From an uncultured Candidatus Saccharibacteria bacterium (GTDB taxonomy: Bacteria > Patescibacteriota > Minisyncoccia > UBA6257), in assembly GCA_964618625.1 (NCBI GenBank), contig CAZUBI010000001.1:1940-65939 (forward strand): a stretch of 64,000 nt of DNA, given 5' to 3'. A program made the position numbers and the translations under genes. Positions within the stretch are counted from its first letter, which is position 1, and every line of letters starts with the position of its first letter. Shown here piece by piece: positions 5,587 to 44,081 of the stretch. Below the pieces are notes generated by a model. It was not told the origin of the DNA. It saw nothing but the letters and a program-made list of their open reading frames with translations, and did no database searches.

Positions 5587-5795
5587 TATGGGGATAGTTT
5601 TTAGATTTTAAGTAAAATCTTATAACTTTTACTTTATTTAAGCCAAAAGATCTTCTATTAAAAATAGAGGATTTTTTATTTTTTCTCCTTGACTCTATGG
5701 GTCAATGGGGAGTAAAATGGAAGAAAGTGGATAGATGTGGATAAGTGTGGGGATAAATATGTTTTTTGTGGAAAACTTTTGAATTTATTTATTTT

Positions 5796-5843
5796 GAGCG
5801 AAGTGAAAAACAAAGTTCTTAAGCAAAGCGAAAGGTTTTTATT
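5796..5843 (+). repeat. 51-nt repeat family 3, intergenic copy
   Basis: GAGCGAAGTGAAAAACAAAGTTCTTAAGCAAAGCGAAAGGTTTTTATT directly upstream of mraZ. Related to copies at 14989, 55194 and inside hrcA. Confidence 0.5.
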
Positions 5844-13493: not shown

Positions 13494-14981
13494 TTAAAGT
13501 TTTGGTTTTATAATTGTACCTTTTTTTGTGTCTTCTAACAGAAATCCAGATTTTTCTATAATTTTTCTTATTTTATCGGCTTTTTCCCATTCTCTCGCTT
13601 CTCTTAATTGCTCTCTTTTTTTTGCTAATTCTTTTATCTTTTTCGGCGGAATAACGAGTTTGATTTTATCTAATCCTAACCCTAATACTTTATCAAAACT
13701 CAGGGCTAACTCATAGACTTCTTTGCCAATAATTTCATTCGCTTTTTTTGGATTGTTCCTAATTTGATAATAATCTTTTATTAATTTCCAGAAAGCAGCC
13801 AAGGCCCTTGGAGTATTAAGATCGTCATTAATTGATTTCTCAAATTCTTTTTTTGTTTTATTCAATGAAAAAGTTGATGTTTTCTTTTTTTGAATCTTTT
13901 TCTTATCAATTAAACAATCTAGAATGAAATTATAAATATTATTTAAACTTTCTTGGGCATTTTCCAATGCTTTTTGAGAAAATTCCAATAATGTTCTGTA
14001 ATGGCTATTTAGAGCTAAATAACGAAATGCTAGAGGAGAAAAACCGGATTCTTCAATGTTTTTAATCAAAATTGCATTACTTTCAGATTTTCCCATTCGC
14101 GCGTCTTTTAAAACAAGGAATTCCCCATGAAGCCAGAAATTTACAAATTTTTTATTTGTTACAGCCTCTACTTGGGCTATTTCATTTGTATGATGAATTG
14201 GTATTAAATCTGTTCCTCCAGTATGTATATCAATTGTTTGCGCTTTTCTTGGAAAAAACTTTTTTTCTTTAAAAGCTTTGCCTAAATATTTTAAATTAAT
14301 AACAGAACATTCAATATGCCATCCTGGAAATCCGCGTCCCCAAGGTGATTCCCATTCCATTTGTCTTTTGGAATTTTTAGGGGAGAATTTCCATAGAGAA
14401 AAATCAGTAATATTCTTTTTCTCTGGAGACAGTTCTATTCTTGCACCAGCCTTTAATGTTTTATTAAGTTTTTTAAAATTCATTCCAGTTAACTTTCCGT
14501 AATCTTTCAATTTAGAAGTATCAAAATAGATTCCATCACTAGTTTGATAAGTGAAGTTATTCTTTTCCAAGGATTTAATGAGTTCGATGTCTTCTTTAAT
14601 ATGATCTGTTGCTTTAGCTACTATATCTGGAGCAAGAATATTTAATTTTTTACAATCAGCAAAGAAAGATTTAGTATAAAATTCGGCTATTTCAAAAGCG
14701 GATTTTTTTGATTTTTTTGCCGCTTTTTCTATTTTGTCTTCGCCTGTATCAGCGTTAGAAGTTAAATGCCCGACATCAGTAATGTTCATTACATGTTTGA
14801 CTTTGTACCCTTGATATAATAAAACTCTTTTTAAAATATCCCCAAAGATGTATGTTCTTAAATTTCCAATGTGCGCCGTTGAATAAACAGTTGGTCCGCA
14901 TGTATAAAGCCCAACCAGCTTATTTTCTATTGGCTTAAAAACCTGTTTCTTTTTAGTAAGAGTATTGTAAAAATAAATCAT
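13494..14981 (-). CDS. cysS: cysteine--tRNA ligase
   Basis: HIGN (HIGH-like), RMGKSESN (KMSKS-like), and the class I architecture. Confidence 0.9.
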
Positions 14982-14988
14982 TTATTTT

Positions 14989-15038
14989 GAGTGTAGTGAA
15001 AAACAAGGTTCTGCCGAGTAAAACGAGGCGGGTTCTTA
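14989..15038 (+). repeat. 51-nt repeat family 3, intergenic copy
   Basis: GAGTGTAGTGAAAAACAAGGTTCTGCCGAGTAAAACGAGGCGGGTTCTTA between cysS and the CorA-like gene. It overlaps the CorA-like stop. Confidence 0.5.
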
Positions 15039-16101: not shown

Positions 16102-16128
16102 TTAGCACTCTTGACATTTGATTGCTAA
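16102..16128 (+). promoter_or_regulatory. CIRCE operator (variant) overlapping a TTGACA-17-TAAAAT promoter
   Basis: TTAGCACTC-TTGACATTT-GATTGCTAA against consensus TTAGCACTC-N9-GAGTGCTAA. Lies 34 nt upstream of hrcA. Confidence 0.7.
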
Positions 16129-16161
16129 TGAGTAAAATAAGAATAAGGTAGACAAAACGAT

Positions 16162-16992
16162 ATGGTAATAAAATTAAAAGATAGAAATAATTACATTTTA
16201 AAAGCTTTGATTAAAGAATATACTCGTACTGGCGAACCTGTTGCTTCTGAAATTTTAAATGCTAAATATCGTCTCGGTGTGAGTTCGGCAACTATTAGAA
16301 ATGATTTTGTAATACTCACTGAAGAAGGTTATTTATACAAACCTTATATTTCAAGCGGGCGTATACCAACAGACAAGGCCTGGAAATTTTTTATTGATAC
16401 TATTTTTGAGGATGAAAATGATTCTTTAGAACAATGGGAAGAAAAATTAAAAAGCCAGTTATTGAAAATTAAGTTCAGATTAGAAAATCACACGAATTCT
16501 GTTAAAGAAATAAAGAAATTATTAGATGTAATATCCGAAGAAAGCCATTCGTTTTGTTTCTGTTATTTATTTGAAGAAGACGAAATAATTAAACAAGGGC
16601 TTAAATATATGTTTACGGAAATGTTTGAAGAAGAATTATTAACTTGCAGGTTTTTTCAACAGATAGCTGAGTCTTTGGAAAGATTGGATGAAAAGCTAAA
16701 AAACATAAAAATTGATGAAAATCCACTTATTTCGAGCAAAGCGAGAAACAAAATTCTGGAGCGAAGCGAACAGGTTCTTATTTCAAGCAAAGCGAGAAAC
16801 AAGGTTCTCGTCAGAGGTGAGGTTCTTATTCTAATAGGGAAAGAGAATCCTTTTGTGCGGTCTAATCAATTTAGTTCTTTACTTAGCGTTGTTTCCAGGC
16901 CAAGGGCGATTTTAGGGATATTAGGGCCTAAAAGAATGCCTTATAAAAGAAATATAGCTATGTTAAGGGCAATTACTAATTTAACATCTTAA
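16162..16992 (+). CDS. hrcA: heat-inducible transcription repressor HrcA (short form with an internal repeat)
   Basis: N-terminal wHTH (ILKALIKEYTRTGEPVAS) and the C-terminal ILGILGPKRMPYKRNIAML typical of HrcA. Sits just upstream of grpE-dnaK. Confidence 0.75.
   Translation: MVIKLKDRNNYILKALIKEYTRTGEPVASEILNAKYRLGVSSATIRNDFVILTEEGYLYKPYISSGRIPTDKAWKFFIDTIFEDENDSLEQWEEKLKSQLLKIKFRLENHTNSVKEIKKLLDVISEESHSFCFCYLFEEDEIIKQGLKYMFTEMFEEELLTCRFFQQIAESLERLDEKLKNIKIDENPLISSKARNKILERSEQVLISSKARNKVLVRGEVLILIGKENPFVRSNQFSSLLSVVSRPRAILGILGPKRMPYKRNIAMLRAITNLTS
16729..16830 (+). repeat. two tandem in-frame units (51 and 48 nt) of repeat family 3 inside hrcA
   Basis: Encodes ISSKARNKILERSEQVL / ISSKARNKVLVRGEVL. 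The nucleotide sequence matches the intergenic copies at 5796, 14989 and 55194. Confidence 0.5.
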
Positions 16993-17044
16993 ATTTAACT
17001 CTGAGCGAGGTCGAAGGACATCATAAATATTTAATTTTAAAAAT

Positions 17045-30843: not shown

Positions 30844-30972
30844 GCTACTTGTTATTGACCTATAATCTATAATCTGGTATCATATAGATGATAAAGAATA
30901 ACCTTATAGGTTGTTTTTTAATACTTACTTAGCACTCTTGAAAATTAAAAAATTTTAGAAAGGAGTAAGAAA
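30844..30972 (+). promoter_or_regulatory. family-2 conserved promoter and long 5' leader, copy 1
   Basis: TTGACC-17-TATCAT promoter, then a leader of about 95 nt ending in TTAGCACTCTTGAAAATTAAAAAATTTTAGAAAGGAG (SD) 8 nt before the ATG. Nearly identical to 42482-42605. Confidence 0.55.
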
Positions 30973-31266
30973 ATGGGTAAGCAAATTGAAGTTATTGTAA
31001 GAGATGATGAGACTAATCGCCAGATTGTCGCTTTAAGATATGAAAAACCTGATGAAATAAAAAGTGAGTCTGCGCTTGAGGAACGTAGAGCAACCGCTAT
31101 TTTTTTAGAAAGTCTTGCAAAAGAAATACATAAGCTTCTATCTCGGAAATTTGAAGATTTTATAGAAATGCCTAAAGATTCTGGAATTGAGCTAAGATTC
31201 CCAGTGTCATTAAATGACAGACCATTTGAGATAATTAAGAAAGAATTCATTGTAGAAATAAAATGA
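30973..31266 (+). CDS. hypothetical protein (97 aa)
   Basis: Strong SD (AGGAG). No recognised domain. Confidence 0.45.
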   Translation: MGKQIEVIVRDDETNRQIVALRYEKPDEIKSESALEERRATAIFLESLAKEIHKLLSRKFEDFIEMPKDSGIELRFPVSLNDRPFEIIKKEFIVEIK

Positions 31267-31308
31267 TTGTATTAATAAGGGAGAAAAAAATTTTAGAAAA
31301 AAGGAGGA

Positions 31309-31885
31309 ATGAAAAATAAGATATTATTTTATTGGCGTTCGTGAAGTAAAGCTTGTTGGTAGAAATGGAAGTATTGCACAAGAAAGCAAGAGGCAAATAA
31401 AGAAAACTGCTAAAATACTAAGAGAATCCAAAATTGCTGATCGGTTTCCTGAAATTGTTTATTCAAATGGGTCTCGTGCAGGAAATATAACAGCAAAACT
31501 TCTTGCAAATTTACTTGGAATTAAAAAAGTAGAGATTAATAAAGCATTTGATGGGAAGAGAGAACCAGCAGCATTTATTAAAAAATGGTTTGGACTAAAA
31601 AAGGTAAAGAAAGAAGCAATTAACCCAGTCAAGAAAATGGTTAATGAGCTAACCAGGTTAGAGAATAACGTTAACAATATAAACATAGCAATCTGTTCAG
31701 GTAAACTTCTCTATTCCAGTACAAGATTGACATATAAACGGTTTAAGAAACCCAATTTATCAACAAGGAAAAGATTGTTTTTGCGTCCAGCTGAATCTTA
31801 TATTTTAGAACAGCATGACGATTGGGGGTTTGAACTAAAATATATGTTTCCGTCTAAAAAAACAATTGATATCCTGGCTTCATAA
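31309..31885 (+). pseudogene. SixA/histidine-phosphatase-like ORF with an apparent +1 frameshift near the start
   Basis: AAGGAGG then an ATG at 31309 gives MKNKILFYWRS-stop. A long open frame continues from 31313 in +1 with no ATG, aligning loosely to SixA (LVGRNGSIAQESKRQ...DRFPEIVYSNGSRAGNITAKLLANLLG). The RHG catalytic motif is not recognisable. Confidence 0.35.
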
Positions 31886-31982
31886 AGACACACTAATTAA
31901 ATTTAGTCTTGATGGTCGTTGGAAAATTAAAACTCTCCAGTGGCCTGTTTTTTAAAAAAACTTGTAATTTATCTAAAAAAAA

Positions 31983-32048
31983 GGTTCCAATATCGTTCCA
32001 TAGCCCCAGTAAATTAGAATCGCCAAAGAGGCGATTTTTTGGTAGAAT
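31983..32048 (+). repeat. cassette junction (Box A + Box C)
   Basis: GGTTCCAATATCGTTCCATAGCCCCAGTAAATTAGAATCGCCAAAGAGGCGATTTTTTGGTAGAAT, 9 nt before the ATG at 32058. Confidence 0.6.
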
Positions 32049-32057
32049 ATAGATATC

Positions 32058-32450
32058 ATGAAAACAATTTTAGTTGATGCAGTTTATACTTTTGTAATAG
32101 AAAATGATGGGATTTTCAAGCTCTTTAAGCAAATGTATGATTTGCTTGAAACTTTTCCAAATAGAAAAATTATTTTGACTGGAGCTAATGATGAACAATT
32201 CAAAAAGTCCAACTTAGACAAAATGCCTTATGAAGTTTTTACACTAAAGCATAATCCAGAAAAAACCGATCCAAAATATTACAAAGCAATGCTTGAACAT
32301 TTTGGTTTTAATAAAAACGATGTTATATATTTTGAGCATGATGAGAACGCAGTAAAAAGTGCACAGTCAGTTGGTATCAAAACCTACAATTACGATTCAG
32401 AGAAAAAGGATTTGATTGCGCTCAAAGATTTTCTGATGGAAAATCTATAA
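32058..32450 (+). CDS. HAD-like hydrolase (short, atypical motif I)
   Basis: ILVDAVYTF (motif I-like), ILTGAN, and the C-terminal IYFEHDENAVKSAQSVGI typical of HAD motifs III/IV. Confidence 0.45.
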   Translation: MKTILVDAVYTFVIENDGIFKLFKQMYDLLETFPNRKIILTGANDEQFKKSNLDKMPYEVFTLKHNPEKTDPKYYKAMLEHFGFNKNDVIYFEHDENAVKSAQSVGIKTYNYDSEKKDLIALKDFLMENL

Positions 32451-32504
32451 AGAAAAAGTTTGAATTTTGTTGAAGATTAAAGGTTAGCGAAAATTAAAAT
32501 TAAT

Positions 32505-33161
32505 ATGAAATTATTACTTACCTCTGGTGGTATAACCAATAAGTCAATTGCTGATGCATTGTTTGATTTGGTTGGCAAAAAGCCGCAAGATACTTCACTG
32601 GTTTTTATTCCCACAGCTGCAAATACAGAAATCGGCGATAAAAGCTGGTTTATTGATGATTTGTTAAATTTAAAAAATCAAAATTTTAAGTCCATTGATA
32701 TTGCTGATATCTCAGCGGCTGACAAAAAGATTTGGAGGTCAAAACTGGAAGAGACTGATGTGTTATTTTTTGGAGGAGGTAATACTTATTATTTAATGGA
32801 ATGGATTAATAAATCAGGCCTTGCGTCTTTTTTTCCTGAGTTATTGAAAGACAAGGTGTATGTAGGATTGAGTGCTGGGAGCATGGTAACAAGCAAAAAT
32901 TTGGCTCTCAAAATTTCTCAAATTTTGTATGAAGAAGATTTGGATAAAACCGAAGACATGCCAGGACTTAACTTTGTGGATTTCTATTTTTTACCTCACT
33001 TGAATTTCCCTTATTTTGAAAAGTTGAGAGAAGATTTTATAAAAGAAACTGTAAAAGGGATGCCGGAAAAGATATACGTTTTAGATGATAACTCTGCTTT
33101 GAAAGTTATTGATGGAAAAGTTGAAGCAATAAGCGAGGGAAAGTGGTTTGTAATCAATTAA
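32505..33161 (+). CDS. peptidase S51 (dipeptidase E-like)
   Basis: LLLTSGG, FFGGGNTYYL, and GLSAGSMV (nucleophile Ser). Confidence 0.65.
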   Translation: MKLLLTSGGITNKSIADALFDLVGKKPQDTSLVFIPTAANTEIGDKSWFIDDLLNLKNQNFKSIDIADISAADKKIWRSKLEETDVLFFGGGNTYYLMEWINKSGLASFFPELLKDKVYVGLSAGSMVTSKNLALKISQILYEEDLDKTEDMPGLNFVDFYFLPHLNFPYFEKLREDFIKETVKGMPEKIYVLDDNSALKVIDGKVEAISEGKWFVIN

Positions 33162-33185
33162 TAAAGTTTTATTGATTAAACTCAA

Positions 33186-34172
33186 GTGCTTATGAAATTT
33201 CAGATTTTGAAAAACAAAAAGAAATTCTTTATTTTTCCAACCATACCTTTTCATTTTGACTCTACTTTTTATAAGCCAGGGCATTTTCCAACCAGTGACA
33301 TGAAGTGGGAATCGGGAAAAAGATGGCAAACTATGTTGTGGAAAGGAAAGAAATTAGGCTTGATCTTTGAAGATAAAAGTGTTGGTAGAAAGTCTAAAGT
33401 ATTGGTTAATGTTTTTTCAGATAAGAAATTATCAACGGAATTTATTGAAGGATTGAAAAAAGAAATTATTTTGCGTTTTAATCTTGATTTAAATCTTGCT
33501 GAATTTTATCAGATGGCCAAAAAAGACATTTTGCTTAAACCAATTATTAGAAGATTTAAAGGTTTGAGGCCAATGCATTCTGGTTCTTTGTATGAATATT
33601 TAATTATTGCCATTGTTTTACAAAATGCCACTATAAAAAGAAGTGTTTATATGATGCAAATTCTTTTTGAAAATTATGGCAGTTTGCTTCAGTTTGACAA
33701 TCAAAAATTTTGGTGTTTTTGGAAGCCGGAAATATTAGTCAAAGCCAAAGAGCAAAAACTAAGAGATTTAAAAATGGGTTATCGGGCCAAATCCTTAATT
33801 AAAGTTTCTGAGCCGTTTGTTAAAGGAGAAATCAATGAATTAGAATTAAGAACAAAATCTTACGAAGAACAAGAAAAAGCCCTTGTTAATCTTTATGGAA
33901 TTGGTCCAGCTTCAATAGGATATATTATGTTTGATGTTTTTCATAGATGGGATTATTTAAATCATATTTCTCCTTGGGAGCAAAAGATTTATACTAAGAT
34001 ATTCTTTAATAAGAATTACGAAAAGGAATTAGTTTCTGTAGAAAGAATGCTTAGATATTTTGATAAATGGGGTAAATGGAAGAATTTAGCAGTTCATTAT
34101 GTTTGGGAAGATATCTGGTGGAAAAGAAAAAACAAACATATTCCCTGGCTAGAAAAAGAAATCCGGCTTTAA
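33186..34172 (+). CDS. HhH-GPD DNA glycosylase, Ogg-like paralog (possibly non-canonical)
   Basis: KMGYRAKSL and an HhH motif LYGIGPASIGYIMFDVF. Paralogous to 40806..41651, but the HhH lysine is replaced (GIGPAS vs GIGPKV). Confidence 0.5.
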   Translation: MLMKFQILKNKKKFFIFPTIPFHFDSTFYKPGHFPTSDMKWESGKRWQTMLWKGKKLGLIFEDKSVGRKSKVLVNVFSDKKLSTEFIEGLKKEIILRFNLDLNLAEFYQMAKKDILLKPIIRRFKGLRPMHSGSLYEYLIIAIVLQNATIKRSVYMMQILFENYGSLLQFDNQKFWCFWKPEILVKAKEQKLRDLKMGYRAKSLIKVSEPFVKGEINELELRTKSYEEQEKALVNLYGIGPASIGYIMFDVFHRWDYLNHISPWEQKIYTKIFFNKNYEKELVSVERMLRYFDKWGKWKNLAVHYVWEDIWWKRKNKHIPWLEKEIRL

Positions 34173-34247
34173 TTTTAAGAAATAGCTGATGAATTAAGAA
34201 ATACAAAAGAAGAGTGCGTTAATAAAAAGAATTATTGAATAGCTTTT

Positions 34248-34946
34248 ATGTTTATAAAAAATCCAAAAGTGAAATTTGTTATAGACCCGAAAGAAGATAT
34301 AAAAAATTATATTCTTTTTAATAAGTACAAATATGCTGCCAGCGATCCAAAAACATTCAAAATGTTTTTGCCTCAAAAATTGCATTATATTTTAAAAAGC
34401 CGATTTTCCGAGAAACAGAAAGCAAAAATAGTGAAAGCATATGTAAAAAATACGTTTATTTTACACAAAAAAGAAATAGCCCAAAATACCGACAGAGCCA
34501 AGAAAGAATGGCACAAGGTGGCAAAGGATTACTTTCGGCTGATGAATAGAATTTTTAAAGATCATCCTTGGCCGAAGGGAAAATATATAGGATTTGCCAG
34601 CGTGTTTGAAATGTATCCCAAAAACGTTAAAGAAAAAATATTTTATTTTTCCGGACTAAAAAAAGATTTAAATTTTAACATTGCCACAATAGCTCATGAA
34701 ATGCTTCATTTTATGTTTTTTGACTATATCGACAAGAATACCAGAGTTAGAGATAGAGGCTCAGAGAACATATGGAATGCTTCAGAAGTTTTTAATTTAG
34801 TAATTGAAACATGGAAACCATATCAAAAGATTTTTAAAACAAATGGTAAGGCGTATTATTTTATGCATAAAAAGATGTTACCCAAAATGAAAAAGCTATG
34901 GAAAGAAAAAGAAGACATTGATTACCTATTAAACCACTATTTTTAA
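34248..34946 (+). CDS. hypothetical protein with an HExxH motif
   Basis: IAHEMLHFMFFDY. May be a metal-dependent hydrolase. Confidence 0.35.
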   Translation: MFIKNPKVKFVIDPKEDIKNYILFNKYKYAASDPKTFKMFLPQKLHYILKSRFSEKQKAKIVKAYVKNTFILHKKEIAQNTDRAKKEWHKVAKDYFRLMNRIFKDHPWPKGKYIGFASVFEMYPKNVKEKIFYFSGLKKDLNFNIATIAHEMLHFMFFDYIDKNTRVRDRGSENIWNASEVFNLVIETWKPYQKIFKTNGKAYYFMHKKMLPKMKKLWKEKEDIDYLLNHYF

Positions 34947-34954
34947 TCCCTAAT

Positions 34955-35389
34955 ATGAAAAATCAATTAATTAATGTTGGGAAAAGATATGTATTCTGTT
35001 TGATTGGTTACAATGGACAAATATCTTTATCTAAACTTTGCGATGATACTTGCAGTGAAGTTTCCCGAATGTTGGCTCAATGGTTTCTAAAAAAATTGCC
35101 TAAAGCAGATATGTATATTGCAAAAGGGAAGATTGGGAAACGATTTCATGATTTACTACTAGTTCACGATAAGGAAGTTTATATATTAGATCCTACAGTA
35201 TGGCAATTCTTTAAAAATAAGAAATCAATTCTTATTAAAAAAACAAAAACAGTTAATGATGCTCTTTCAGTACTTGTAAGTATATATGGAGGAAAATGGA
35301 AAATCTCAGAGCGAATTGCCAAATATTCAAATAAAGAGATAAAACAGCTTAAAAGCGTTTTGGCGAAAAGATTTAAAAAATCTTTATAA
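34955..35389 (+). CDS. hypothetical protein
   Basis: 144-aa ORF, no recognised motif. Confidence 0.35.
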   Translation: MKNQLINVGKRYVFCLIGYNGQISLSKLCDDTCSEVSRMLAQWFLKKLPKADMYIAKGKIGKRFHDLLLVHDKEVYILDPTVWQFFKNKKSILIKKTKTVNDALSVLVSIYGGKWKISERIAKYSNKEIKQLKSVLAKRFKKSL

Positions 35390-35530
35390 TACTTATATTA
35401 CTGGGTACTAACCTCATGTGGTCTGTTTTTGCTCTTAGTTTGGCATTATGAAAATAATTCGTATAATAACCAGTTGTACGGAATAGAAAAACATATTTAT
35501 TAAAATAGAATTTTGGAGTAAAATAAATTT

Positions 35531-36493
35531 ATGTTAAACAATATAAAAGATTTTGTAGAGATTTTTAAATGCCCCGATTGCGAGGAAGATTTAGTTATTG
35601 ATGGTGAAAATCTTAAGTGTAGAAAATGTGACAGAATTATTCCTGTGGTTAATGGTGTTGCGATTTTTTTATCACAAAAAGAATGGAAAGAGTTTTTTAG
35701 TAAAAGCCACAACTTTGAGAATTATACTATGGATAGCGAAAAACTCTTTTTTCAAGAAATTTTAGAGCAAAATGATTATTTAAAGTCTATTGAGATGATT
35801 GATAAATATACTGATTCGGAAGAGAATAAAAAAACTTTTGCGGAAATAACTGGCTCGACAGGAACTGATGATAAAGAATTAGAAAGAGCAATTTTGGAAG
35901 CAAATGATAAGATATTAGATAAGGGCGAGGTTGATAAAGCAAAAATGATTTTGGACTGGCCGACTGGCCCAGGCGCTTTTATTCTAAGAATGGTTAATAA
36001 AATTAGTAGGGATGTTGTTGTTGTAAGTTCTGAGATTAATCTATTCAGTATTTTTCGATTAAAAAAATATCTAGAATCAAAAGGGTTAGCTGACAATATT
36101 CTTTTTGTAAACAATGATGTTATAAAAATGCCATTTAAAGACGATGTTTTTGACTTGGTATCGGTATTTGGATTGACCGTTGAAGTTCCAGATTCAGATA
36201 AAGCTTTGAGTGAGACATACAGAGTTATGAAATCTGGCGGGGTAATCGTAGGGAGTGGAGAGATATATAAAGAAGGTTCTGAAAGTATGAAATTGGCCGA
36301 TGAAATGAATATTGGCCAGCTTTGTACAAGTGAAAGATTTTCTCAGAAAATAAATAAAATCGGTTTTAAAAACATTGATATTGAAATCGCTTATGAAGGC
36401 TATGATACGGATGATTTACCGGACGAAGAAAGATGTCCACTGCCCGCGAGAGGTGATTGGTTTTCTTACGTTATCATAAAGGCAGAAAAATAA
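35531..36493 (+). CDS. class I SAM-dependent methyltransferase with an N-terminal Trm112-like zinc ribbon
   Basis: CPDCEEDL...CRKCDRIIPVVNGVAIFL, then the motif I-like ILDWPTGPGAF and motif II VVVVSSEIN. Confidence 0.6.
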   Translation: MLNNIKDFVEIFKCPDCEEDLVIDGENLKCRKCDRIIPVVNGVAIFLSQKEWKEFFSKSHNFENYTMDSEKLFFQEILEQNDYLKSIEMIDKYTDSEENKKTFAEITGSTGTDDKELERAILEANDKILDKGEVDKAKMILDWPTGPGAFILRMVNKISRDVVVVSSEINLFSIFRLKKYLESKGLADNILFVNNDVIKMPFKDDVFDLVSVFGLTVEVPDSDKALSETYRVMKSGGVIVGSGEIYKEGSESMKLADEMNIGQLCTSERFSQKINKIGFKNIDIEIAYEGYDTDDLPDEERCPLPARGDWFSYVIIKAEK

Positions 36494-36505
36494 TCTTTTC
36501 TATTA

Positions 36506-37309
36506 ATGATGAAAGAAATAGAAATTATTCAACAATTTGAGGATATTTTTATTAAAGCTGGAAAGCTGGCAGTTAAATTGAGAAATAATGCTGTTATTGA
36601 GCAAAAGCATAATTCTGGGATAAAGGATATTGATATTGTCACGAGTGCAGATTTAACTGTTCAAGAATTCGTGTTGGAGAAATTAGCAGTATCAGAATTG
36701 AAGCACTGTGAAATCGTTGCAGAAGAAGATACCCCTAGTAGAAACTTGTTTGCCAAATCTTCTAATTTTGTAATTACTATTGATCCAATTGATGGTACAA
36801 AGCTATACGCCAGTGGTAAAAAGATGTATTCCATAATCATAACCGTTCATAATAAAAAAAGGCCGATTTATACTTTTTGTTATTTTCCTGAGGTTAAATG
36901 GGGGGTGAAAATTGTTTATGATGAATGTCATTTTTTTGGTAATAAGCCAAAAATAATACATAATACAGTTCAGCCAAAGACGATTGTTTACTCATTTTAT
37001 AACTCAAAAGGAAATCCTATAGATTCTATTCATGGGCAACCCAAAGAATTATTAAAAGAGCGTTATATTTTTCGGAATAAAAAAGAAATTACCAATGAAG
37101 CTGGTTCAACTGCCCTTTTCTTATTAGGAATTGTTGATGGATATTTTGTAGAAAATGGATCAGCTGTTGATTGCCTTGTCGGACTTCATTATGCATTAGC
37201 ACGAGGGTTTAAAGTTTACCAAAATATTGATTTAGAAAAAACGGTTTCGAGTAAACTTTCTAGTGGAAGCGAAGAATATAGAGGTAATTATTTGGTTATT
37301 AGAAATTAG
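36506..37309 (+). CDS. inositol monophosphatase/FBPase family phosphatase
   Basis: VITIDPIDGTKLY metal-binding motif (DPIDGT), and WDCLVG-like ALARG region. Confidence 0.6.
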   Translation: MMKEIEIIQQFEDIFIKAGKLAVKLRNNAVIEQKHNSGIKDIDIVTSADLTVQEFVLEKLAVSELKHCEIVAEEDTPSRNLFAKSSNFVITIDPIDGTKLYASGKKMYSIIITVHNKKRPIYTFCYFPEVKWGVKIVYDECHFFGNKPKIIHNTVQPKTIVYSFYNSKGNPIDSIHGQPKELLKERYIFRNKKEITNEAGSTALFLLGIVDGYFVENGSAVDCLVGLHYALARGFKVYQNIDLEKTVSSKLSSGSEEYRGNYLVIRN

Positions 37310-37364
37310 AAACATTAACAGAAAAATAAAAAGAATTTATTGTCAAAACAAAAATCATATTACA

Positions 37365-37395
37365 AATCGCCAAAAAGGCGATTTTTTGGTAGAAT
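37365..37395 (+). terminator. Box C only (hairpin + TGGTAGAAT)
   Basis: AATCGCCAAAAAGGCGATTTTTTGGTAGAAT, 13 nt before the ATG at 37409. The upstream reading frame translates the repeat as KSPKRRFFGRI. Confidence 0.55.
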
Positions 37396-37408
37396 AAAGG
37401 ATATAAAC

Positions 37409-37759
37409 ATGTCATATATATTAAGAAAAATCAAAGATAGTAATTCAAAGGATATAACTTGTGGAGTAATGCGCAATTTGACTACAGCGGGAGATTTTAA
37501 AGAAATGGATTTTGCTCATGTTACTATTACAGACAAAACTAAGGAGCATTATCATAAAGAACTCACTGATGTCTATTATGTATTAAAAGGTTCTATAGCT
37601 ATTGAAATTGATGGAAAGGTTGAGAATTTAGAAGAGGATTCATTAATAATGATTTATCCGAATACAAATCATAAAGCTTGGAAAACAAGTAAAGAAGACG
37701 CAGAAATCTTAGTAGTATGTTGTCCTCCTTGGAGCGAGGAAGATGAAATATTAGTTTAA
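37409..37759 (+). CDS. cupin domain protein
   Basis: EHYHKELTDVYYVLKG...IYPNTNHKAW, a two-His cupin motif. Start placed after the Box C promoter. Confidence 0.5.
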   Translation: MSYILRKIKDSNSKDITCGVMRNLTTAGDFKEMDFAHVTITDKTKEHYHKELTDVYYVLKGSIAIEIDGKVENLEEDSLIMIYPNTNHKAWKTSKEDAEILVVCCPPWSEEDEILV

Positions 37760-37763
37760 TATT

Positions 37764-38105
37764 ATGAAATTAGATTCCGCAATATTTTATACAAATAATT
37801 TAGAAAAAGTTATTCCTTTTTACAGGAATATAGTTGGTTTGAATATAGAATATATTCAAGAAGGTAAATTTGTTTCTTTTAAATTTGAAAATGGGAGATT
37901 AGGTATAAAACAGGCAAAAGAAAAAAGAGAGATACCAGGGCATCAAACTATTTTTATAGAAATAGAAGACATTGAGAAAACATATAATGAGTTTAAGGAA
38001 AAAGGAATAATCTTTTTAAAGGAATTAACACAAGAAAATTGGGCAACTAATTTTAGTTTTCTTGATCCTGATGGCAACAAGATTCAATTTATGAAAAGAA
38101 AATAG
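37764..38105 (+). CDS. VOC/glyoxalase-bleomycin resistance family protein
   Basis: A beta-alpha-beta-beta-beta module with FLDPDGNKIQF at the C-terminus. Confidence 0.65.
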   Translation: MKLDSAIFYTNNLEKVIPFYRNIVGLNIEYIQEGKFVSFKFENGRLGIKQAKEKREIPGHQTIFIEIEDIEKTYNEFKEKGIIFLKELTQENWATNFSFLDPDGNKIQFMKRK

Positions 38106-38131
38106 GTTTCAACATCGTTCCATAGCCCCAG
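38105..38131 (+). repeat. Box A only copy (variant)
   Basis: GGTTTCAACATCGTTCCATAGCCCCAG. Confidence 0.5.
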
Positions 38132-38235
38132 CAAATTAAGTTTAAAAAGTCGCCCTCTTGATATTTCTCTTACAATATTGTAAAGTTAGGGCAAAAGGTC
38201 GGAGCTTCATTAATATTAAATTTTGACCAAATATT

Positions 38236-38463
38236 ATGATTGTAGAATTTGTTTTAAAAGAGCGTCCCTCAGAATTAAAGATTGAAGGTTACGAAGAATT
38301 AGATTTTACCATTGGTTCTGTTTTTGCAAGCCCAGTAGATAAAAGAGTGGAAGTAGTAGTTAAAAAACATCCCGATGGAAGAGTAAGTATATTTACCGAC
38401 AAATCAGAGGTTATAAAAACCATCACTCAAACAACTGAAGTTGTTGATATTCACGTCAAATAA
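38236..38463 (+). CDS. hypothetical small protein
   Basis: 75-aa ORF. Confidence 0.3.
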   Translation: MIVEFVLKERPSELKIEGYEELDFTIGSVFASPVDKRVEVVVKKHPDGRVSIFTDKSEVIKTITQTTEVVDIHVK

Positions 38464-38476
38464 ACGAAAACTAAAA

Positions 38477-38507
38477 AATCGCCAAGAAGGCGATTTTTTG
38501 GTAGAAT
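38477..38507 (+). terminator. Box C only
   Basis: AATCGCCAAGAAGGCGATTTTTTGGTAGAAT, 8 nt before the ATG at 38516. Confidence 0.55.
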
Positions 38508-38515
38508 AGAAGTAT

Positions 38516-38812
38516 ATGAGAACAATTCCTTTCCCTTTTAGATACAAGAAAGCCTTATTAAATAAGACTAAAAATACGACTATTCGCGTTAGCAAGGAAG
38601 TTGGAAAATACAAGAAAGGAAGAATTTATGTAACAGAATCTTATGCTGGTAGAAATTGGGGTGTTAAAATCAAAATTAATGATGTAGTTTCTACAAAACT
38701 AGGCGATCTTAAAGATTTCGGAATTCCTAAACAAAGCATCAATGCTATTTTAAAACAAAAAGGAATTTCCCTCAAAAGCAAAGCAGATTTGATTAGATTT
38801 GAGATAATATGA
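38516..38812 (+). CDS. ASCH-like small protein
   Basis: 98 aa, PUA-like beta-barrel pattern (TIRVSKE...KGRIYV). Weak call. Confidence 0.3.
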   Translation: MRTIPFPFRYKKALLNKTKNTTIRVSKEVGKYKKGRIYVTESYAGRNWGVKIKINDVVSTKLGDLKDFGIPKQSINAILKQKGISLKSKADLIRFEII

Positions 38813-38813
38813 A

Positions 38814-38908
38814 AGTTTCAACATCGTTCCATAGGGACAGCTATCTAGTTTTTTATCGAGGGACCGAGATACATCAAAATCGCCAAAAAGGCGATTTTTT
38901 GGTAGAAT
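38814..38908 (+). repeat. cassette junction (variant Box A + Box B + Box C)
   Basis: AGTTTCAACATCGTTCCATAGGGACAG, then CTATCTAGTTTTTTATCGAGGGACCGAGATACATCAAA, then ATCGCCAAAAAGGCGATTTTTTGGTAGAAT. Confidence 0.6.
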
Positions 38909-38917
38909 ATAGATAAT

Positions 38918-39865
38918 ATGAAAATTGGAGACGTATTTTTTGCAAAAGTTAAAAGCTTTGAGGAATTTAAAGATTTTATCAAGAACTTAGATATTAAGGC
39001 TGACATTTTTATTATTAAACCAAATTGGGTAGAGCCATCTAAAGGGCAATACACAGAAGTGCTGCCACTGCAATGGTTGTTTGATTGTTTGGATGGAACA
39101 AAAATAATAATAGAGAGCCATACTGCTTGGAGAAATAAACTTCTTTTGGAGACTGGAAAAGTTATTGTTAATGCGGATAACGTAAGTCAGAAAAGAGATT
39201 TTTTAAGAGAAAATGACAAATGGTTTCTTGAAGCTACGGGCTTAAAAGAATTATTAAAAAAATATAATGTTGAGTATATAAATATTACAGAAGAAGTATG
39301 GAAAGGAGAAGTTGTTGACTCTGAAATTATTAGAGAAATTGTAGAGGAAAAATTCGCCGCTGTTCAACATAAAGAGTTATACAGCGTAATTCCTAAAAAG
39401 ATATTTGGATTAAAAAATACTGTTTTGATTGATTTGGCAAAAATTAAGACAGACGGAAGCGTTGTGATGAGTTTATCAACTAAAAATCTTTTTGGCTTGA
39501 TTCCAGATCCAAAACGTTCTCCAAGATATCACGACCATGAGAAGAAGATACTTCCTTACGCAATTTTAGATATGAATAAAATTTATCGTGCTCTTTTTAA
39601 AACTGTATTTATAAACGAGGGAATTTTTACTGCAATAGACGGACCTTCGCCAGAACAAGGAAGATTAAAAGAAGGCCTTAATTTAATTGTTGCCGGTCAT
39701 AATTCTATTGATGTTGATTTAACAACAGCAAAACTTGTTGGAATTAACCCAGAAGAATTGTTAGATAATTTACTTCAGCCAGTTAATGAAGTTTTCGGCT
39801 CAAGCCCGGAAATATTAACTGATATCCCGGAGAATTTTTCTGATAGATTGAATTATAAAGATTGA
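38918..39865 (+). CDS. DUF362-like protein
   Basis: IIKPNWVEP pattern. Weak call. Confidence 0.35.
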   Translation: MKIGDVFFAKVKSFEEFKDFIKNLDIKADIFIIKPNWVEPSKGQYTEVLPLQWLFDCLDGTKIIIESHTAWRNKLLLETGKVIVNADNVSQKRDFLRENDKWFLEATGLKELLKKYNVEYINITEEVWKGEVVDSEIIREIVEEKFAAVQHKELYSVIPKKIFGLKNTVLIDLAKIKTDGSVVMSLSTKNLFGLIPDPKRSPRYHDHEKKILPYAILDMNKIYRALFKTVFINEGIFTAIDGPSPEQGRLKEGLNLIVAGHNSIDVDLTTAKLVGINPEELLDNLLQPVNEVFGSSPEILTDIPENFSDRLNYKD

Positions 39866-39885
39866 TTATTAAAAAACCATTAAAA

Positions 39886-39912
39886 AGCTTCCAACATCGT
39901 TCCATAGCCCCA
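39886..39912 (+). repeat. Box A only copy (variant)
   Basis: AGCTTCCAACATCGTTCCATAGCCCCA followed by TTGACT-17-TATATT promoter-like sequence. Confidence 0.5.
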
Positions 39913-39924
39913 ACTTTTTATCTA

Positions 39925-40094
39925 TTGACTTTTAATATAAAATATGCTATATTTATGATATCCTATAATGGGATATTTTTAGTTCTTTGAAAAAGAATAT
40001 TTCTACTATCTGCTATATAACTGATCATTACATATGATTAGTGGTTGGTTATATGGCAGGTAGTTAAAGTATAAAATAAAAAACTTAGAAAGGA
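39925..40094 (+). promoter_or_regulatory. diverged family-2-like promoter and long leader
   Basis: TTGACT-17-TATATT, about 130 nt of leader, then CTTAGAAAGGAGTGAAAAAAATG. Compare TTTAGAAAGGAGTAAGAAAATG in copy 1. Confidence 0.4.
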
Positions 40095-40574
40095 GTGAAA
40101 AAAATGCATAAGAACAAAAAGGTAGATGAGATAAAATTTGAGATGAGTATTAGTGGTATTAGTTGCGATGGTACTCAAAGCGTGTTTTTGAAAGTGTTTG
40201 GTAAAGAGATTGCGCTCAGATATTTTTATGACGGAATTCCCAAAATTTACATTCGTGTAGATGAAAAAGAGAAAGAGATTTCCTTGAAACGAGATCCAGT
40301 ATCCTTTTTCGCTTATCCATTAATGAAGATATTTGAAGTGTCGGAGGAAACAGATAAGGAAATGGATGAAAAAAAAATAAATGTAAAATTCGAGATTTTG
40401 GAAAAACTGTCAAAAGATATAGGAAAAACAGACTATGAGCTCATAATATGTTTCAGACCATTATTGGAATACAACCCAGATAATATAAGATATATTGATG
40501 TTAGCTTTGAGAGTTTAAGGAAGACAGATTATAAGAGGGAGGTAATTTTTGCACATTTTATTCCTAATTACTAA
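40095..40574 (+). CDS. hypothetical protein
   Basis: 159 aa with a strong SD. No recognised domain. Confidence 0.4.
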   Translation: MKKMHKNKKVDEIKFEMSISGISCDGTQSVFLKVFGKEIALRYFYDGIPKIYIRVDEKEKEISLKRDPVSFFAYPLMKIFEVSEETDKEMDEKKINVKFEILEKLSKDIGKTDYELIICFRPLLEYNPDNIRYIDVSFESLRKTDYKREVIFAHFIPNY

Positions 40575-40689
40575 GTTTAAATAATTTTATCGAAGAAGAA
40601 CGGATAATTAATTGATTAAAATTTACATCAAGATATCCGTTTTTTTATTTAAACAGATTTTAATATTGTTAAGCAATTTGAGCCAAAAA

Positions 40690-40776
40690 GGTTCCAACAT
40701 CGTTCCATAGCCCCAGCCGTCTAGTTTTTTTTATCGAGGGACCGAGATACATCAAAATCGCCAAAAAGGCGATTTT
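40690..40776 (+). repeat. cassette junction (Box A + Box B + Box C with TGATAAAAT)
   Basis: GGTTCCAACATCGTTCCATAGCCCCAG CCGTCTAGTTTTTTTTATCGAGGGACCGAGATACATCAAA ATCGCCAAAAAGGCGATTTTTTGATAAAAT. Confidence 0.6.
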
Positions 40777-40805
40777 TTGATAAAATAAATTAATAGTAGA
40801 TAGTT

Positions 40806-41651
40806 ATGAAATTTAAAATTTCCAAAACTAAATTCAAAGGTCCCTTTAATCTAAAATTAACTTTAGATTCTGATCAATGTCCTTCAGATATCTGGTGCCT
40901 TAAAAATGGAAAATATACGACATTTATTGAATTAAAGAATAATTGGATTCCAATAGCAGTTTGGGAAGAAAAAGAAAATCTATTTTTTGAATGTAAAGAA
41001 GATATTTCTGAGAAGCTTCTTTATCATTTTTGGTCAGATTATTATTTATTAAGATTTTATTCTGAGTTTGCTTCAGATAAATATATATCAAAAGCTATTA
41101 ATTTCTGCCAAGGTTTAAGACTAATGCGAGATTGGGATATAAATTACAGGATTATTGAAGCAATCTTAACTCAAAATGCTTCTGTCAAACAAATTAGAAA
41201 TATGGAGAGTAATTTGAGAAATTTTTATGGCAATCAACATACTTTTAATTTGGAAGAAATTGCAAATGCAAACGAAAAGAAGATTCAGAAGAAATGTAAA
41301 GTTGGATATAGGGCAAAATATCTTATAAGTGTAGCCAGAAAAATTTTAAATAACGAATTAAACATTGAGCAAATAAAAGAAATGGATAGCACTGATGCAA
41401 GGAGATTACTAACAGATATTGAAGGAATAGGACCAAAGGTTGCAGATATAATTTTACTTTATGGATTCGGCAAAATAGATACTTTTCCAATGGACGTTTG
41501 GTTAAGAAGGGCATTGACTAGAGAATATTTTAAAGGAGAACAAACTTCGGATAAAAAACTAAGAGAGTTTGCTCTGAATTATTTTGGCAGGCATGCTGGA
41601 ATAGCGCATTTATACATGTTTTATTACGAAAGGAAAATTAAATCTTCATAA
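40806..41651 (+). CDS. 8-oxoguanine DNA glycosylase/AP lyase (Ogg, HhH-GPD)
   Basis: KVGYRAKYL, then HhH DIEGIGPKVADIILLYGFG with the catalytic Lys, and FPMDVWL with the Asp. Confidence 0.65.
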   Translation: MKFKISKTKFKGPFNLKLTLDSDQCPSDIWCLKNGKYTTFIELKNNWIPIAVWEEKENLFFECKEDISEKLLYHFWSDYYLLRFYSEFASDKYISKAINFCQGLRLMRDWDINYRIIEAILTQNASVKQIRNMESNLRNFYGNQHTFNLEEIANANEKKIQKKCKVGYRAKYLISVARKILNNELNIEQIKEMDSTDARRLLTDIEGIGPKVADIILLYGFGKIDTFPMDVWLRRALTREYFKGEQTSDKKLREFALNYFGRHAGIAHLYMFYYERKIKSS

Positions 41652-41655
41652 TAAA

Positions 41656-41682
41656 GGTCCCAACATCATTTCATAGCCCCAG
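41656..41682 (+). repeat. Box A only copy (variant)
   Basis: GGTCCCAACATCATTTCATAGCCCCAG. Confidence 0.5.
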
Positions 41683-41721
41683 CACGAGTTAGTATAGTAT
41701 CAAGAAACTAATGTTATAAAT

Positions 41722-42381
41722 ATGGAAAACAACCTACAAAATATTAAAGCTGTGATCTTTGATGTTGATGGCACTTTATCTTCTCAAATATCGTGGACAG
41801 CTCTCACAAAAGATTTAGGAGCATCAGTCGAGAAACATCTTGAGATTTTTAAAGAGTTTAAAGAACAAAAGACCACATATGAGGTATCCAAGAAAAAACT
41901 TTTGATATTATGGAAAGAAACTGGTAATGCCAAACGACAATTTTTAGAACAGCTATTTATAAACTGGCCACTCAGAAAAGACGCAGAAGAAATCATTTCA
42001 TTTTTAAAAAATAAAGAATATCTTCTGTGTATTATAACTGGCTCTTTTGATTTATATGCACAAATTATTGCCAAAAGATTAGGGATTAAGTATTATTTTG
42101 CAAACACAAAACTTGATTGGGATTCTAAAGGGAATCTTACTGATTTTCATTATTTTAAAGATCAAGCGTCCAAGAAATTAGAGCAATTTACTGAATTTTG
42201 TAAAATGCAAAATATAAAGTCGGAAAACTGTGTGGCCGTTGGCGATGATGAAAATAATATTAAACTTTTTAAAATCATGAAAGGTATAGCTGTAAAATCG
42301 ATTCATTCTGAACCACTAGAAGAAATTGCTTGGAAGACAATAAATAACCTTTTAGAACTAAAAGAGATTTTAAGTAGATGA
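41722..42381 (+). CDS. HAD-IB hydrolase (phosphoserine phosphatase-like)
   Basis: Motif I VIFDVDGTL, motif II ITGS, and motif IV VAVGDDENNIKLF. Confidence 0.7.
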   Translation: MENNLQNIKAVIFDVDGTLSSQISWTALTKDLGASVEKHLEIFKEFKEQKTTYEVSKKKLLILWKETGNAKRQFLEQLFINWPLRKDAEEIISFLKNKEYLLCIITGSFDLYAQIIAKRLGIKYYFANTKLDWDSKGNLTDFHYFKDQASKKLEQFTEFCKMQNIKSENCVAVGDDENNIKLFKIMKGIAVKSIHSEPLEEIAWKTINNLLELKEILSR

Positions 42382-42481
42382 GTTAATCCATTACAGGGTT
42401 GTACCACTTTTTAGTATGCTTGGAATCTGTCGTTGTGGTAAAAAATCAGCTTTTATCGAGAGATCGAGATACACAATCGAC

Positions 42482-42605
42482 TGTTGACCCATAATCTATA
42501 ATCTGGTATTATATAAATGATAAAAGGTAGTCTGAAAAGGTTATTTTTTAAAATTTCAATTGCACTCTTGAAAATTAAAAAAATTTTAGATAAGGAGGAA
42601 AAATA
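42482..42605 (+). promoter_or_regulatory. family-2 conserved promoter and long 5' leader, copy 2
   Basis: TTGACC-17-TATTAT, then the leader, then TTGCACTCTTGAAAATTAAAAAAATTTTAGATAAGGAGG. Preceded by a Box B-like TTTTATCGAGAGATCGAGATACACAATCG. Confidence 0.55.
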
Positions 42606-42728
42606 AATGAATAAAATGATAGAAAAAGTGTTATATCAAGCATGCAAAAATAAAAGAGATATTCTTTGTTTAATACCCAAGGAAGGAGGAAATCTTGCGC
42701 TAGCATTTTCTGCACCTAATATGATTAA
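42606..42728 (+). CDS. small ORF (40 aa)
   Basis: Strong SD AAGGAGG 8 nt upstream. First ORF after the family-2 leader. Not in the ORF track because it is under 60 aa. Confidence 0.25.
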
Positions 42729-42776
42729 ACTTTCTTTAGAAAAAGATAGAAAAAATAAAAAAGGAGGTAAAAGAAA

Positions 42777-43205
42777 ATGAAAAAAGATGTAAGTAATATA
42801 GTATCTTTAAAAATTGTTCTTATTCGAATACAAAATCTGCATAAGAAGATTTCTCAAGAAGAAGATATGGCAATAGATATGAATCAACATGCCAATCTTT
42901 ATTTCAAAAAACAAATGACAATTTTTAGGAAATTACTTAAAGAATTGGGTAAGAGAATTTATAAAGAAACTAGATCTAAATCAGACGGTATGAAATTCAT
43001 AACATCTAATGTTAAAAAGGTGAAATGTAGAATTACTGAAAAAGGGCAAATAGTTGGAGAAATATTTTTTGATTTTTATCCTTTCCATTTGGAAAATTTT
43101 GTTAAGAAAAACAAATTGAGTTTTGTAAAAAAAGTAGCAGTTCTATTAGAGATACCTAAAGAATATATTGATATACGTTTTCACATGACGGAAGATGCAA
43201 AATAG
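42777..43205 (+). CDS. hypothetical protein
   Basis: 142 aa, SD AAGGAGG upstream. Confidence 0.4.
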   Translation: MKKDVSNIVSLKIVLIRIQNLHKKISQEEDMAIDMNQHANLYFKKQMTIFRKLLKELGKRIYKETRSKSDGMKFITSNVKKVKCRITEKGQIVGEIFFDFYPFHLENFVKKNKLSFVKKVAVLLEIPKEYIDIRFHMTEDAK

Positions 43206-43260
43206 GGGAAGTGAAGAAAAATGAAGAAACTAAAATCTAAACAATAAAGGAGAGGGAGAA

Positions 43261-43467
43261 ATGACGACTAATAAATATCTTGTGATTTATTGGGAGCATG
43301 GATCGGATGGAACTGGGAAAAGTATTATAAAGCACTGTAAAGAAAATACAAACCAATATATTTGGCTGACCAAGGAAGAAGCATTGCAAGCCTATGCAGA
43401 AGCAAAGAGGCAGAAGAAGCAGAATCTTATGATTTTAAAGAGAGTCGTGAGTTTTGAGAGGAGGTAA
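43261..43467 (+). CDS. hypothetical small protein
   Basis: 68 aa, SD AAGGAGAGGGAG upstream. Confidence 0.35.
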   Translation: MTTNKYLVIYWEHGSDGTGKSIIKHCKENTNQYIWLTKEEALQAYAEAKRQKKQNLMILKRVVSFERR

Positions 43468-43602
43468 AAATGATAATCGAAGGGAGCTCTTCAAATTCCA
43501 TTAAGGATTTTGTAGGATCTCCCTTTTTTATTATCTAAAACAGGTTCTAGCTCTTCGGAAAGCTCAGAGCATAGTAAAGTTCAATTCTGGGAGCGGGTTT
43601 TT

Positions 43603-43635
43603 AAAATCGCCAGAAAGATGATTTTTTGGTATTAT
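43603..43635 (+). terminator. degenerate Box C (TGGTATTAT)
   Basis: AAAATCGCCAGAAAGATGATTTTTTGGTATTAT, 8 nt before the ATG at 43644. Confidence 0.4.
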
Positions 43636-43643
43636 AGAGATAT

Positions 43644-43958
43644 ATGGAAGAAAAACATATAGCAATGTGTGGATTAGAATGTAATACTTGCGAAGCATTC
43701 ATTGCTACAAAAAATAATAATTATGATTTAAGAAAGAAAGTTGCAAAGGAATGGACAGAAAGATATAAAATCAATCCCCCTTTAGAGCCGAGGGATATTA
43801 ATTGTCGGGGTTGTTTATCGCAATACGGACCATTGTATAGAAATTGTCTTTTGTGTGAAGTTAGAAAATGTGGATTTAGTAGAGGGATTAAAAATTGTAA
43901 AGAATGTAAAGATTATAAATGCGATAAGCTCACAAATCTACAAAATAATCTTTTTTAG
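43644..43958 (+). CDS. Cys-rich DUF3795-like protein
   Basis: CGLECNTCEAF, CRGC, CLLCEVRKC, CKECKDYKCDKL. Confidence 0.45.
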   Translation: MEEKHIAMCGLECNTCEAFIATKNNNYDLRKKVAKEWTERYKINPPLEPRDINCRGCLSQYGPLYRNCLLCEVRKCGFSRGIKNCKECKDYKCDKLTNLQNNLF

Positions 43959-43977
43959 AGAAGAAAATCTTAGAAAA

Positions 43978-44072: not shown

Positions 44073-44081
44073 ATAGATAAT

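Follow-up and report, generated by a model that had tools for sequence, protein, structure and literature searches.

A small twin-hairpin repeat, probably mobile, inside hrcA and between genes of Patescibacteria

We conclude, with a probability of about 80%, that a twin-hairpin repeat, small, mobile and non-autonomous, occurs widely in Patescibacteria (CPR), and that a repeated segment inside hrcA of the DNA analysed here consists of two adjacent copies of it. The whole stretch that we analysed, 64,000 nucleotides long, is referred to as the window. CPR genomes are very small, often have spacers of 0-13 nt, and are thought to carry little mobile DNA. Nevertheless, this 50-nt element has been gained, duplicated and lost between close relatives, and its surviving copies lie precisely at gene boundaries or are translated into a short loop of a housekeeping protein.

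Copies in the window and their structure

The window has a G+C content of about 31% and is G-rich on the + strand almost throughout, with a skew of about zero or slightly negative in 2 of 16 4-kb blocks. Its gene content includes the mraZ cell-division cluster, corA, cysS, hrcA-grpE-dnaK-dnaJ and groES-groEL. A covariance model of the element, R1, was run with filters off and found exactly five copies, at a density of about 1 per 13 kb. These scored 41-73 bits (E values of 3e-8 to 1.5e-16), and the best match below them reached 13.7 bits (E=0.36). A degenerate 23-mer likewise matched the window five times versus 0.04 expected, so that the intergenic matches, whose significance the earlier note had left in question, are highly significant. 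The positions and sequences given in that note (5796, 14989, 16729-16830 and 55194) were confirmed in the window sequence. Repeat grouping placed the five copies in families D7/D8, and the hrcA pair was absent from the output of Tandem Repeats Finder run on the window. All five copies lie on the + strand, which is probably chance or a weak bias. The features are as follows.

5790 to 5841, + strand: intergenic copy near mraZ; R1 57.5 bits; ends 2 nt before the mraZ ATG (5844)
14983 to 15038, + strand: corA-cysS copy; R1 47.8 bits; occupies the entire spacer, antisense to both genes
16162 to 16992, + strand: hrcA, intact, 276 aa; NCBIfam TIGR00331 (E=5e-39), Pfam PF01628
16726 to 16731, + strand: left copy of the CTTATT direct repeat, with the right copy at 16825-16830; compared with the empty sites of L142 and L144
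16732 to 16782, + strand: hrcA unit 1, 51 nt, encodes SSKARNKILERSEQVLI; R1 match 16728-16778, 41 bits
16783 to 16830, + strand: hrcA unit 2, 48 nt, encodes SSKARNKVLVRGEVLI; R1 match 16779-16830, 72.8 bits
55184 to 55239, + strand: intergenic copy; R1 56.6 bits; long form with a GAGCGAAGTGA loop in hairpin 2

The copy at 55184 directly follows a stem-loop and T-run that we read by eye. At the corA-cysS boundary, the cysS start codon (CAT, 14979-14981) lies just ahead of the copy, and the terminal TTA of the copy (15036-15038) is complementary to the stop codon of corA.

A unit is 44-54 nt long and follows the plan 5'-TTTY, hairpin 1, CAAGGTTCT, hairpin 2, RGGTTCTTA-3', or in full TTTY-GA-GC-GNA-GC-GA-RAAA-CAAGGTTCT-[stem, GNA or GAGCGAAGYGA loop, stem]-RGGTTCTTA. 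In hairpin 1, a UUUY/RAAA stem is followed by tandem GA/GA and then by a 2-bp stem, which carries a GNA triloop. The stem of hairpin 2 covaries freely and is closed by either of the two loops. The two similar halves described earlier are real, each half being a short hairpin followed by GGTTCT. Terminal inverted repeats are absent, as the ends TTTYGAG... and ...GGTTCTTA are not reverse complements; the terminal similarity is direct (TTATTT ... CTTATT). The junctions show a direct repeat of 3-6 nt (CTTATT, TTA or TTTT), which is also the element's own end sequence.

The structure was assessed by covariation. Among 18 ungapped copies, 95.8% of cells were paired and both sides had changed in 7 of 12 pairs. 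None of 500 shuffles of these copies reached the observed covariation, and sliding the partners lowered pairing to 31-52%. An alignment of 55 copies made with the model gave 95.4% pairing and changes on both sides in 9 of 12 pairs, which is weaker evidence because this alignment leans towards the model. At three stem positions the 55 model-aligned copies had 22 G-U pairs versus 3 non-pairs, indicating that the structure belongs to the strand as written and not to its complement. Nearest-neighbour DNA folding of the window copies was not better than that of shuffled sequences (z +1.2 to -1.6), a result that says little, because the energy model gives no credit to GNA mini-hairpins or tandem GA pairs; the case for the structure is thus the covariation itself.

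The periodic make-up of the element, a repeat plus a variable part, could be read as the remnant of a TIGR- or CRISPR-like guide-RNA array, and TIGR arrays, including stem-loop arrays, have been reported in CPR (PMC12045711). Those arrays have 5-15 units, with two alternating 8-12-nt repeats and 9-nt non-palindromic spacers, beside a tas gene (PMC12045711). The element, however, occurs as 1-3 dispersed units with a conserved hairpin 1 and a self-complementary variable part. We therefore rejected membership in the TIGR arrays on unit number and on the palindromic variable part, and we regard a guide-array origin as highly improbable.

The window holds other repeats as well. At positions 29262-49100, a tRNA (29262-29348) is followed by a series of single accessory genes; by eye, these include exo/endonuclease-phosphatase-like, methyltransferase-like, deaminase-like and aldehyde dehydrogenase-like genes, hydrolases and others. 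Related repeat families of 45-95 nt, with up to 14 copies, separate many of these genes; in them, AGGTTCCAACATCGTTCCATAGCCCCAGC...AATCGCCAAAGAGGCGATTTTTTGGTAGAAT comprises the end of a gene, a hairpin resembling a terminator and a -10-like box. The arrangement resembles a cassette array or an expression unit that has been templated repeatedly. Further downstream, two 53-nt promoter-like copies (CTTGACAAATTATTTTTGTTTGCTATAATG...) at 49979-50031 and 50719-50771 are 91% identical and lie 740 nt apart.

Insertion of two units in hrcA

The two hrcA units, described earlier as 51 and 48 nt, in frame and directly before LILIGKEN, were found as stated. They encode residues 191-223 of the 276-aa HrcA, which reads ENPLISSKARNK...GEVLILIGKEN across the insert. 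Both units are multiples of three and stop-free and are thus translated. The earlier note had proposed that this 33-aa segment might be an insertion, and an alignment of orthologs bears this out. At 20 of 23 orthologous loci the site is empty (HrcA of 242-243 aa), two loci have one unit, and the window has two. Apart from P0002, which has one 16-aa unit at the window's insertion point, all orthologs in the protein alignment lack the 33 residues that precede LILIGKEN. The nearest relative, P0003 (243 aa), has no insert and is 95% identical elsewhere. HrcA relatives span 235-260 aa, with the close ones at 242-243 aa (276 minus 33) and one at 259 aa. The earlier remark that this HrcA is unusually short therefore describes a trait of the lineage, in which the uninserted ortholog has 243 aa. 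The 99 nt in hrcA are an insertion.

Nucleotide comparison resolves the order in which the units arrived. The empty site, in L142 and L144, reads CCGCTTATT joined directly to CTAATAGG. L132 and L134 have a single 48-nt unit in hrcA, and the window has 51 + 48 nt between CTTATT copies. The single hrcA unit of L007/L132 and of L134 is an ortholog of unit 2 of the window, whose hairpin 2 is CGTCAGAGGTG, versus CACCAAAGGTG and CGCCAAAGGTG in L132/L134. Hairpin 2 of unit 1 is CTG-GAGCGAAGCGAA-CAG, unlike that of unit 2, and unit 1 is absent from L132/L134. This difference in hairpin 2 argues for a second arrival beside the first unit rather than a simple slippage copy. Taken together, these comparisons show that one unit entered at the site between CTTATT and CTA in an ancestor that the window shares with L132 and L134, and that another unit, differing in hairpin 2, joined the first in the window's lineage. 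Unit 1 is the more recent insertion in hrcA.

An alternative raised earlier was a local duplication of native hrcA sequence, the intergenic copies being its decayed fragments. The tandem arrangement favors this explanation, and nothing more does so. The orthologs lack the segment, the element is present in dozens of other genomes and genes, and it occurs in many CPR lineages whose hrcA lacks the segment, so this explanation is already refuted and we give it practically no credence. The same holds for its variant, an assembly artefact: the identical 276-aa HrcA is found on 9 independent contigs, and six of these come from six different sequencing runs (SRR8482191-98), which indicates that the tandem pair is not an artefact of assembly.

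To place the insert on the protein, we used an AlphaFold model of HrcA built from a 102-sequence alignment (pLDDT 80.8, pTM 0.80); an earlier model from 36 sequences, with a pLDDT of 53, was too poor. The best structural match of the model found with Foldseek was T. maritima HrcA (1stz). The sole stretch with a pLDDT below 50 comprises residues 186-218, between a helix (175-180) and a strand (221-225), so the segment appears as a low-confidence loop in an otherwise confident model. The model thus predicts that the 33 added residues form a flexible loop, which follows the last helix and precedes the LILIG strand, and that the remainder of HrcA is unchanged. Upstream, a CIRCE-like inverted repeat, TTAGCACTC-N9-GATTGCTAA (16102-16128), overlaps the hrcA promoter, which is near-consensus (TTGACA-16-TAAAAT, region 16102-16138). 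With a CIRCE-like repeat over this promoter, the HrcA regulon looks intact.

The spacer between hrcA and grpE holds a separate 42-nt hairpin insert, ATTTAACTCTGAGCGAGGTCGAAGGACATCATAAATATTTA, at 16993-17034 of the window. This insert is present in the window, L142, L144 and L134; L010, L141 and others lack it and have a spacer of 10-13 nt.

Copies at gene boundaries, in other genes and in other lineages

Among the window copies, filled and empty sites were compared for hrcA and for corA-cysS. In 10 relatives the corA-cysS boundary consists of just CAT-TTA, with stop and start codon directly abutting (TAAATG when read along the genes). A 54-nt insert flanked by TTA...TTA is present there in the window, L141 and L143, an orthologous copy is found in L091 (CAYZJA01), and the insert of L150 comprises 2.3 identical tandem units. 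Two half-units are found in the hrcA-grpE spacer of L150 as well, and a further copy in its recR-dnaB spacer, which measures 5 nt in the window. In L010 a copy follows a DUF7847-domain gene, and the window has overlapping stop and start codons at that site (TAATG). L007 has one copy upstream of hrcA and one inside it. These comparisons show that the occupied sites differ among close relatives, that the empty sites are clean and that tandem duplication is frequent. Other spacers in the window and in L134-L149 are 5-13 nt, leaving little non-coding room. Much larger spacers were seen in L007 (2700-2860 and 1412-1921), with other GAGCGAAGC-type hairpin elements, such as GTCATCCTGAGCTAATGCGAAGGATC, and nested palindromes, which indicates that several small hairpin families coexist in the clade.

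On a neighbor-joining tree of hrcA, the carriers did not form one group. Their scatter points to precise loss or to recombination between populations, two processes that cannot be told apart on a tree that is short and has no bootstrap.

Many copies lie exactly between a stop and a start codon, and among 55 intergenic copies 15 have a terminal TTA that is complementary to the TAA stop codon of a neighboring gene. Such placement, together with a structure that is conserved and covaries, could also be expected of a host cis-regulatory RNA (a terminator or attenuator, an mRNA stabilizer, or a MIRU-like spacer for translational coupling), with the coding copies being accidental. A simple scan did call hairpin 2 of hrcA unit 2, plus TTCTTATT, terminator-like. 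This call was made for 1 of the 5 window copies, however, and that copy is inside hrcA. Moreover, copies between co-directional genes are antisense in 28 cases and sense in 16, and the wobble pairs are still on the element's strand. For these reasons, the terminator call in one of five copies and the antisense orientation of most intergenic ones, we rejected an intrinsic terminator. Rfam also yielded no matching family at the gathering or a permissive threshold, and close relatives do without the element at those sites with no visible replacement. We consider a regulatory RNA unlikely, and mobility of the repeat remains our preferred reading.

Orientation was likewise compared with local GC skew, giving about 19 against 10 and no clear rule. 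The copies of CAYZJA01 keep one strand although the skew changes sign, and opposite orientations occur 1-2 kb apart. These data bear on a further explanation, a host-beneficial signal in single-stranded DNA (primase or primosome entry, DNA uptake or protection) that spreads by its usefulness. The structure of the element is strand-specific and its core is conserved across distant CPR lineages, which speaks for such a signal. The loop tips of both hairpins (GC-GAA-GC, CC-GAA-GG, CC-GTA-GG and similar) fit the GCGNAGC mini-hairpin consensus, and mini-hairpins of the GCGNAGC and CCGAAGG kinds, which are poor binders of SSB, are found at ssDNA priming sites such as the phage G4 origin and ssiA, which they mark (PMC13037366). 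Such a signal does not sit well with an orientation that has no consistent relation to GC skew, a density as low as that in the window or a presence that varies among sister lineages, and the copies in coding sequence would be hard to explain. We judge this signal less likely still than a regulatory RNA.

Of 84 R1 matches, 62 lie between genes and 22 inside ORFs, and about one copy in six is in frame within a conserved gene. The search for other in-frame insertions that the earlier note had suggested was fruitful in related genomes, with hosts that include LepA, RecR, uL18, YbeY, RseP, GrpE and a NUDIX protein. The Pfam domain match continues across the insert in LepA (GTPase domain), RecR (Toprim domain), uL18, YbeY and the NUDIX protein, a hydrolase; in RseP the M50 domain match stops just before the insert, and in a Memo-AMMECR1 fusion the insert is in the linker. 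Further hosts identified by Pfam are a GTPase with a faint TGS-domain match and a glycosyltransferase. A small membrane protein has independent insertions in L087 and L152, in different reading frames. The grpE of L007 has two antisense units after codon 4, which lengthen GrpE from 164 to 199 aa. Three copies lie in a ribosomal protein operon of L107 (CAYZJA010000001.1, 104-112 kb): the first inside uL18, antisense and in frame; the second either where the uL23 ORF begins or in the spacer between uL4 and uL23; and the third in the spacer after the third ORF downstream of a uS19-like ORF, before the next small ORF.

All three sense frames of the element are open, reading YFEQSEKQGS...GSY (the commonest), LISSKARNKVL (that of hrcA) and LFRAKRETR, and one antisense frame, KNLASQEPCYSPLAHN, is also used. 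A 51-aa concatenated query of YFEQSEKQGS...GSY returned 28 candidates and 5 short hypothetical proteins, and gave no usable in-frame count. The length of every coding copy examined is a multiple of three (10/10), versus 24/47 of intergenic copies (Fisher p=0.003), which argues for selection on translated inserts. This result also bears on the explanation that the units are removed from the mRNA like introns, leaving the HrcA protein unaffected. The units do form hairpins, and CPR rRNA genes carry insertions that are removed. A filter for stop-free multiples of three, as seen in the coding copies, is nevertheless expected only if the inserts are translated, and antisense copies are tolerated in frame as well. 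We therefore consider removal from the mRNA very unlikely.

To survey the spread of the element, one genome per species was scanned with a pattern, which gave at least 115 loci, about half of them true copies. The core is conserved across distant CPR lineages, although the pattern required conserved bases and so inflated the apparent sequence conservation. Among the matches listed, hosts with specific record titles are mostly CPR lineages: Wildermuthbacteria, Shapirobacteria, Nealsonbacteria, Berkelbacteria, Parcubacteria, Paceibacterota and MAGs labelled Saccharibacteria. A few host records are titled Gammaproteobacteria, Bacillota or Pacearchaeota, by label only, and chance matches to the pattern came from Bacteroidota, Clostridia and similar groups. 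Viral contigs gave 4 matches in 2.9 million, indicating that the element is not notably phage-borne. Our literature searches on the motif, and on CPR plus MITE or palindromic repeat, found no published description.

Possible route of movement and comparison with known systems

The active form of the element would be a folded single strand, most likely of DNA, because the wobble pairs stay on one strand whichever way local transcription runs and because the loop tips are of the GCGNAGC type. Integration may occur between A and TTT or at TTA, sites defined by three filled/empty pairs. The 3' end of the element (CTTA, then TT) would recreate the target site, so that new copies would land preferentially at an existing one; the tandem arrays in hrcA, grpE, L030, L103 and L150 could be explained in this way. 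A candidate enzyme is an HUH-type single-strand transposase, as for IS200/IS605 and REP elements. Equally, the element could move by enzyme-free template switching or slippage between the TTATT repeats at both ends. The HUH transposase route in its classical form is disfavored by two observations: orientation has no clear link to GC skew, and opposite copies occur 1-2 kb apart. Whichever the route, selection would retain copies that are in frame or exactly at gene boundaries.

We tentatively suggest, as a broader reading that we hold with less than even confidence, that the element represents an undescribed, CPR-restricted class of mini mobile element. It would be the smallest known in-frame inserter, defined by two DNA mini-hairpins and GGTTCT repeats in place of inverted repeats, moved by machinery not yet linked to transposition (a host single-strand DNA enzyme or replication template switching), and would have repeatedly remodelled essential proteins, namely HrcA, GrpE, uL18, LepA, RecR and YbeY, in bacterial genomes that rank among the most streamlined. 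The element is a marker that varies between closely related CPR populations, and it explains odd insertions of 16-35 aa and spurious small ORFs in the annotation of CPR genomes. The covariance model R1 provides a defined sequence and structure with which to seek a mobilizing enzyme or replication process.

The element shares features with several known systems. The loop tips of both hairpins fit the consensus of d(GCGNAGC) mini-hairpins, which in DNA are far more stable than their RNA counterparts (PMC13037366). Those mini-hairpins, however, are single functional sites in phage and plasmid origins, not dispersed mobile repeats. MIRUs resemble the element in being units of 40-100 bp, often in tandem, in short operon spacers, with ends that overlap the stop and start codons of their neighbors. 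MIRUs point along transcription, whereas most intergenic copies of the element are antisense, and MIRUs are not known for hairpins or for in-frame insertion in genes.

IS200/IS605-derived PAE and REP/BIME, which are moved by Y1 HUH enzymes, likewise lack terminal inverted repeats, have subterminal hairpins with a structure tied to one strand, and insert beside a short conserved sequence without clear duplication; the clean empty sites of the element are consistent with precise excision, as in these families. IS200/IS605 elements show a strict lagging-strand bias. The element, in contrast, has no strict orientation to replication, is smaller and is without a GTAG motif. MITEs (Correia, ERIC, Nezha and others) are also short, non-autonomous and multi-copy, with occasional in-frame gene fusion (PMC10969869), but have terminal inverted repeats and target-site duplications derived from an IS parent. 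The element has no terminal inverted repeats and its ends show direct similarity, and we rejected membership among the MITEs.

The earlier note had likened the element to the Rickettsia palindromic elements (RPEs), and the empty orthologs, the other in-frame hosts and the predicted loop position support a repeat that inserts in frame as RPEs do. Both are dispersed, multi-copy, short hairpin-forming repeats, and both often give in-frame, stop-free inserts in unrelated conserved genes where the fold tolerates them, absent from orthologs (PMC10969869). RPEs, however, are about 100-150 bp long and confined to Rickettsia, whereas the element is 44-54 nt (15-18 aa) and is found across CPR; it also differs in consisting of two mini-hairpins separated by GGTTCT direct repeats and in forming tandem arrays. 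As neither its size nor its host range fits, the element is not a member of the RPE family. It is RPE-like in behavior only, set apart by size, architecture and host range, and would provide a second, independent example of the RPE phenomenon in very different bacteria, one that shows how proteins acquire loops.
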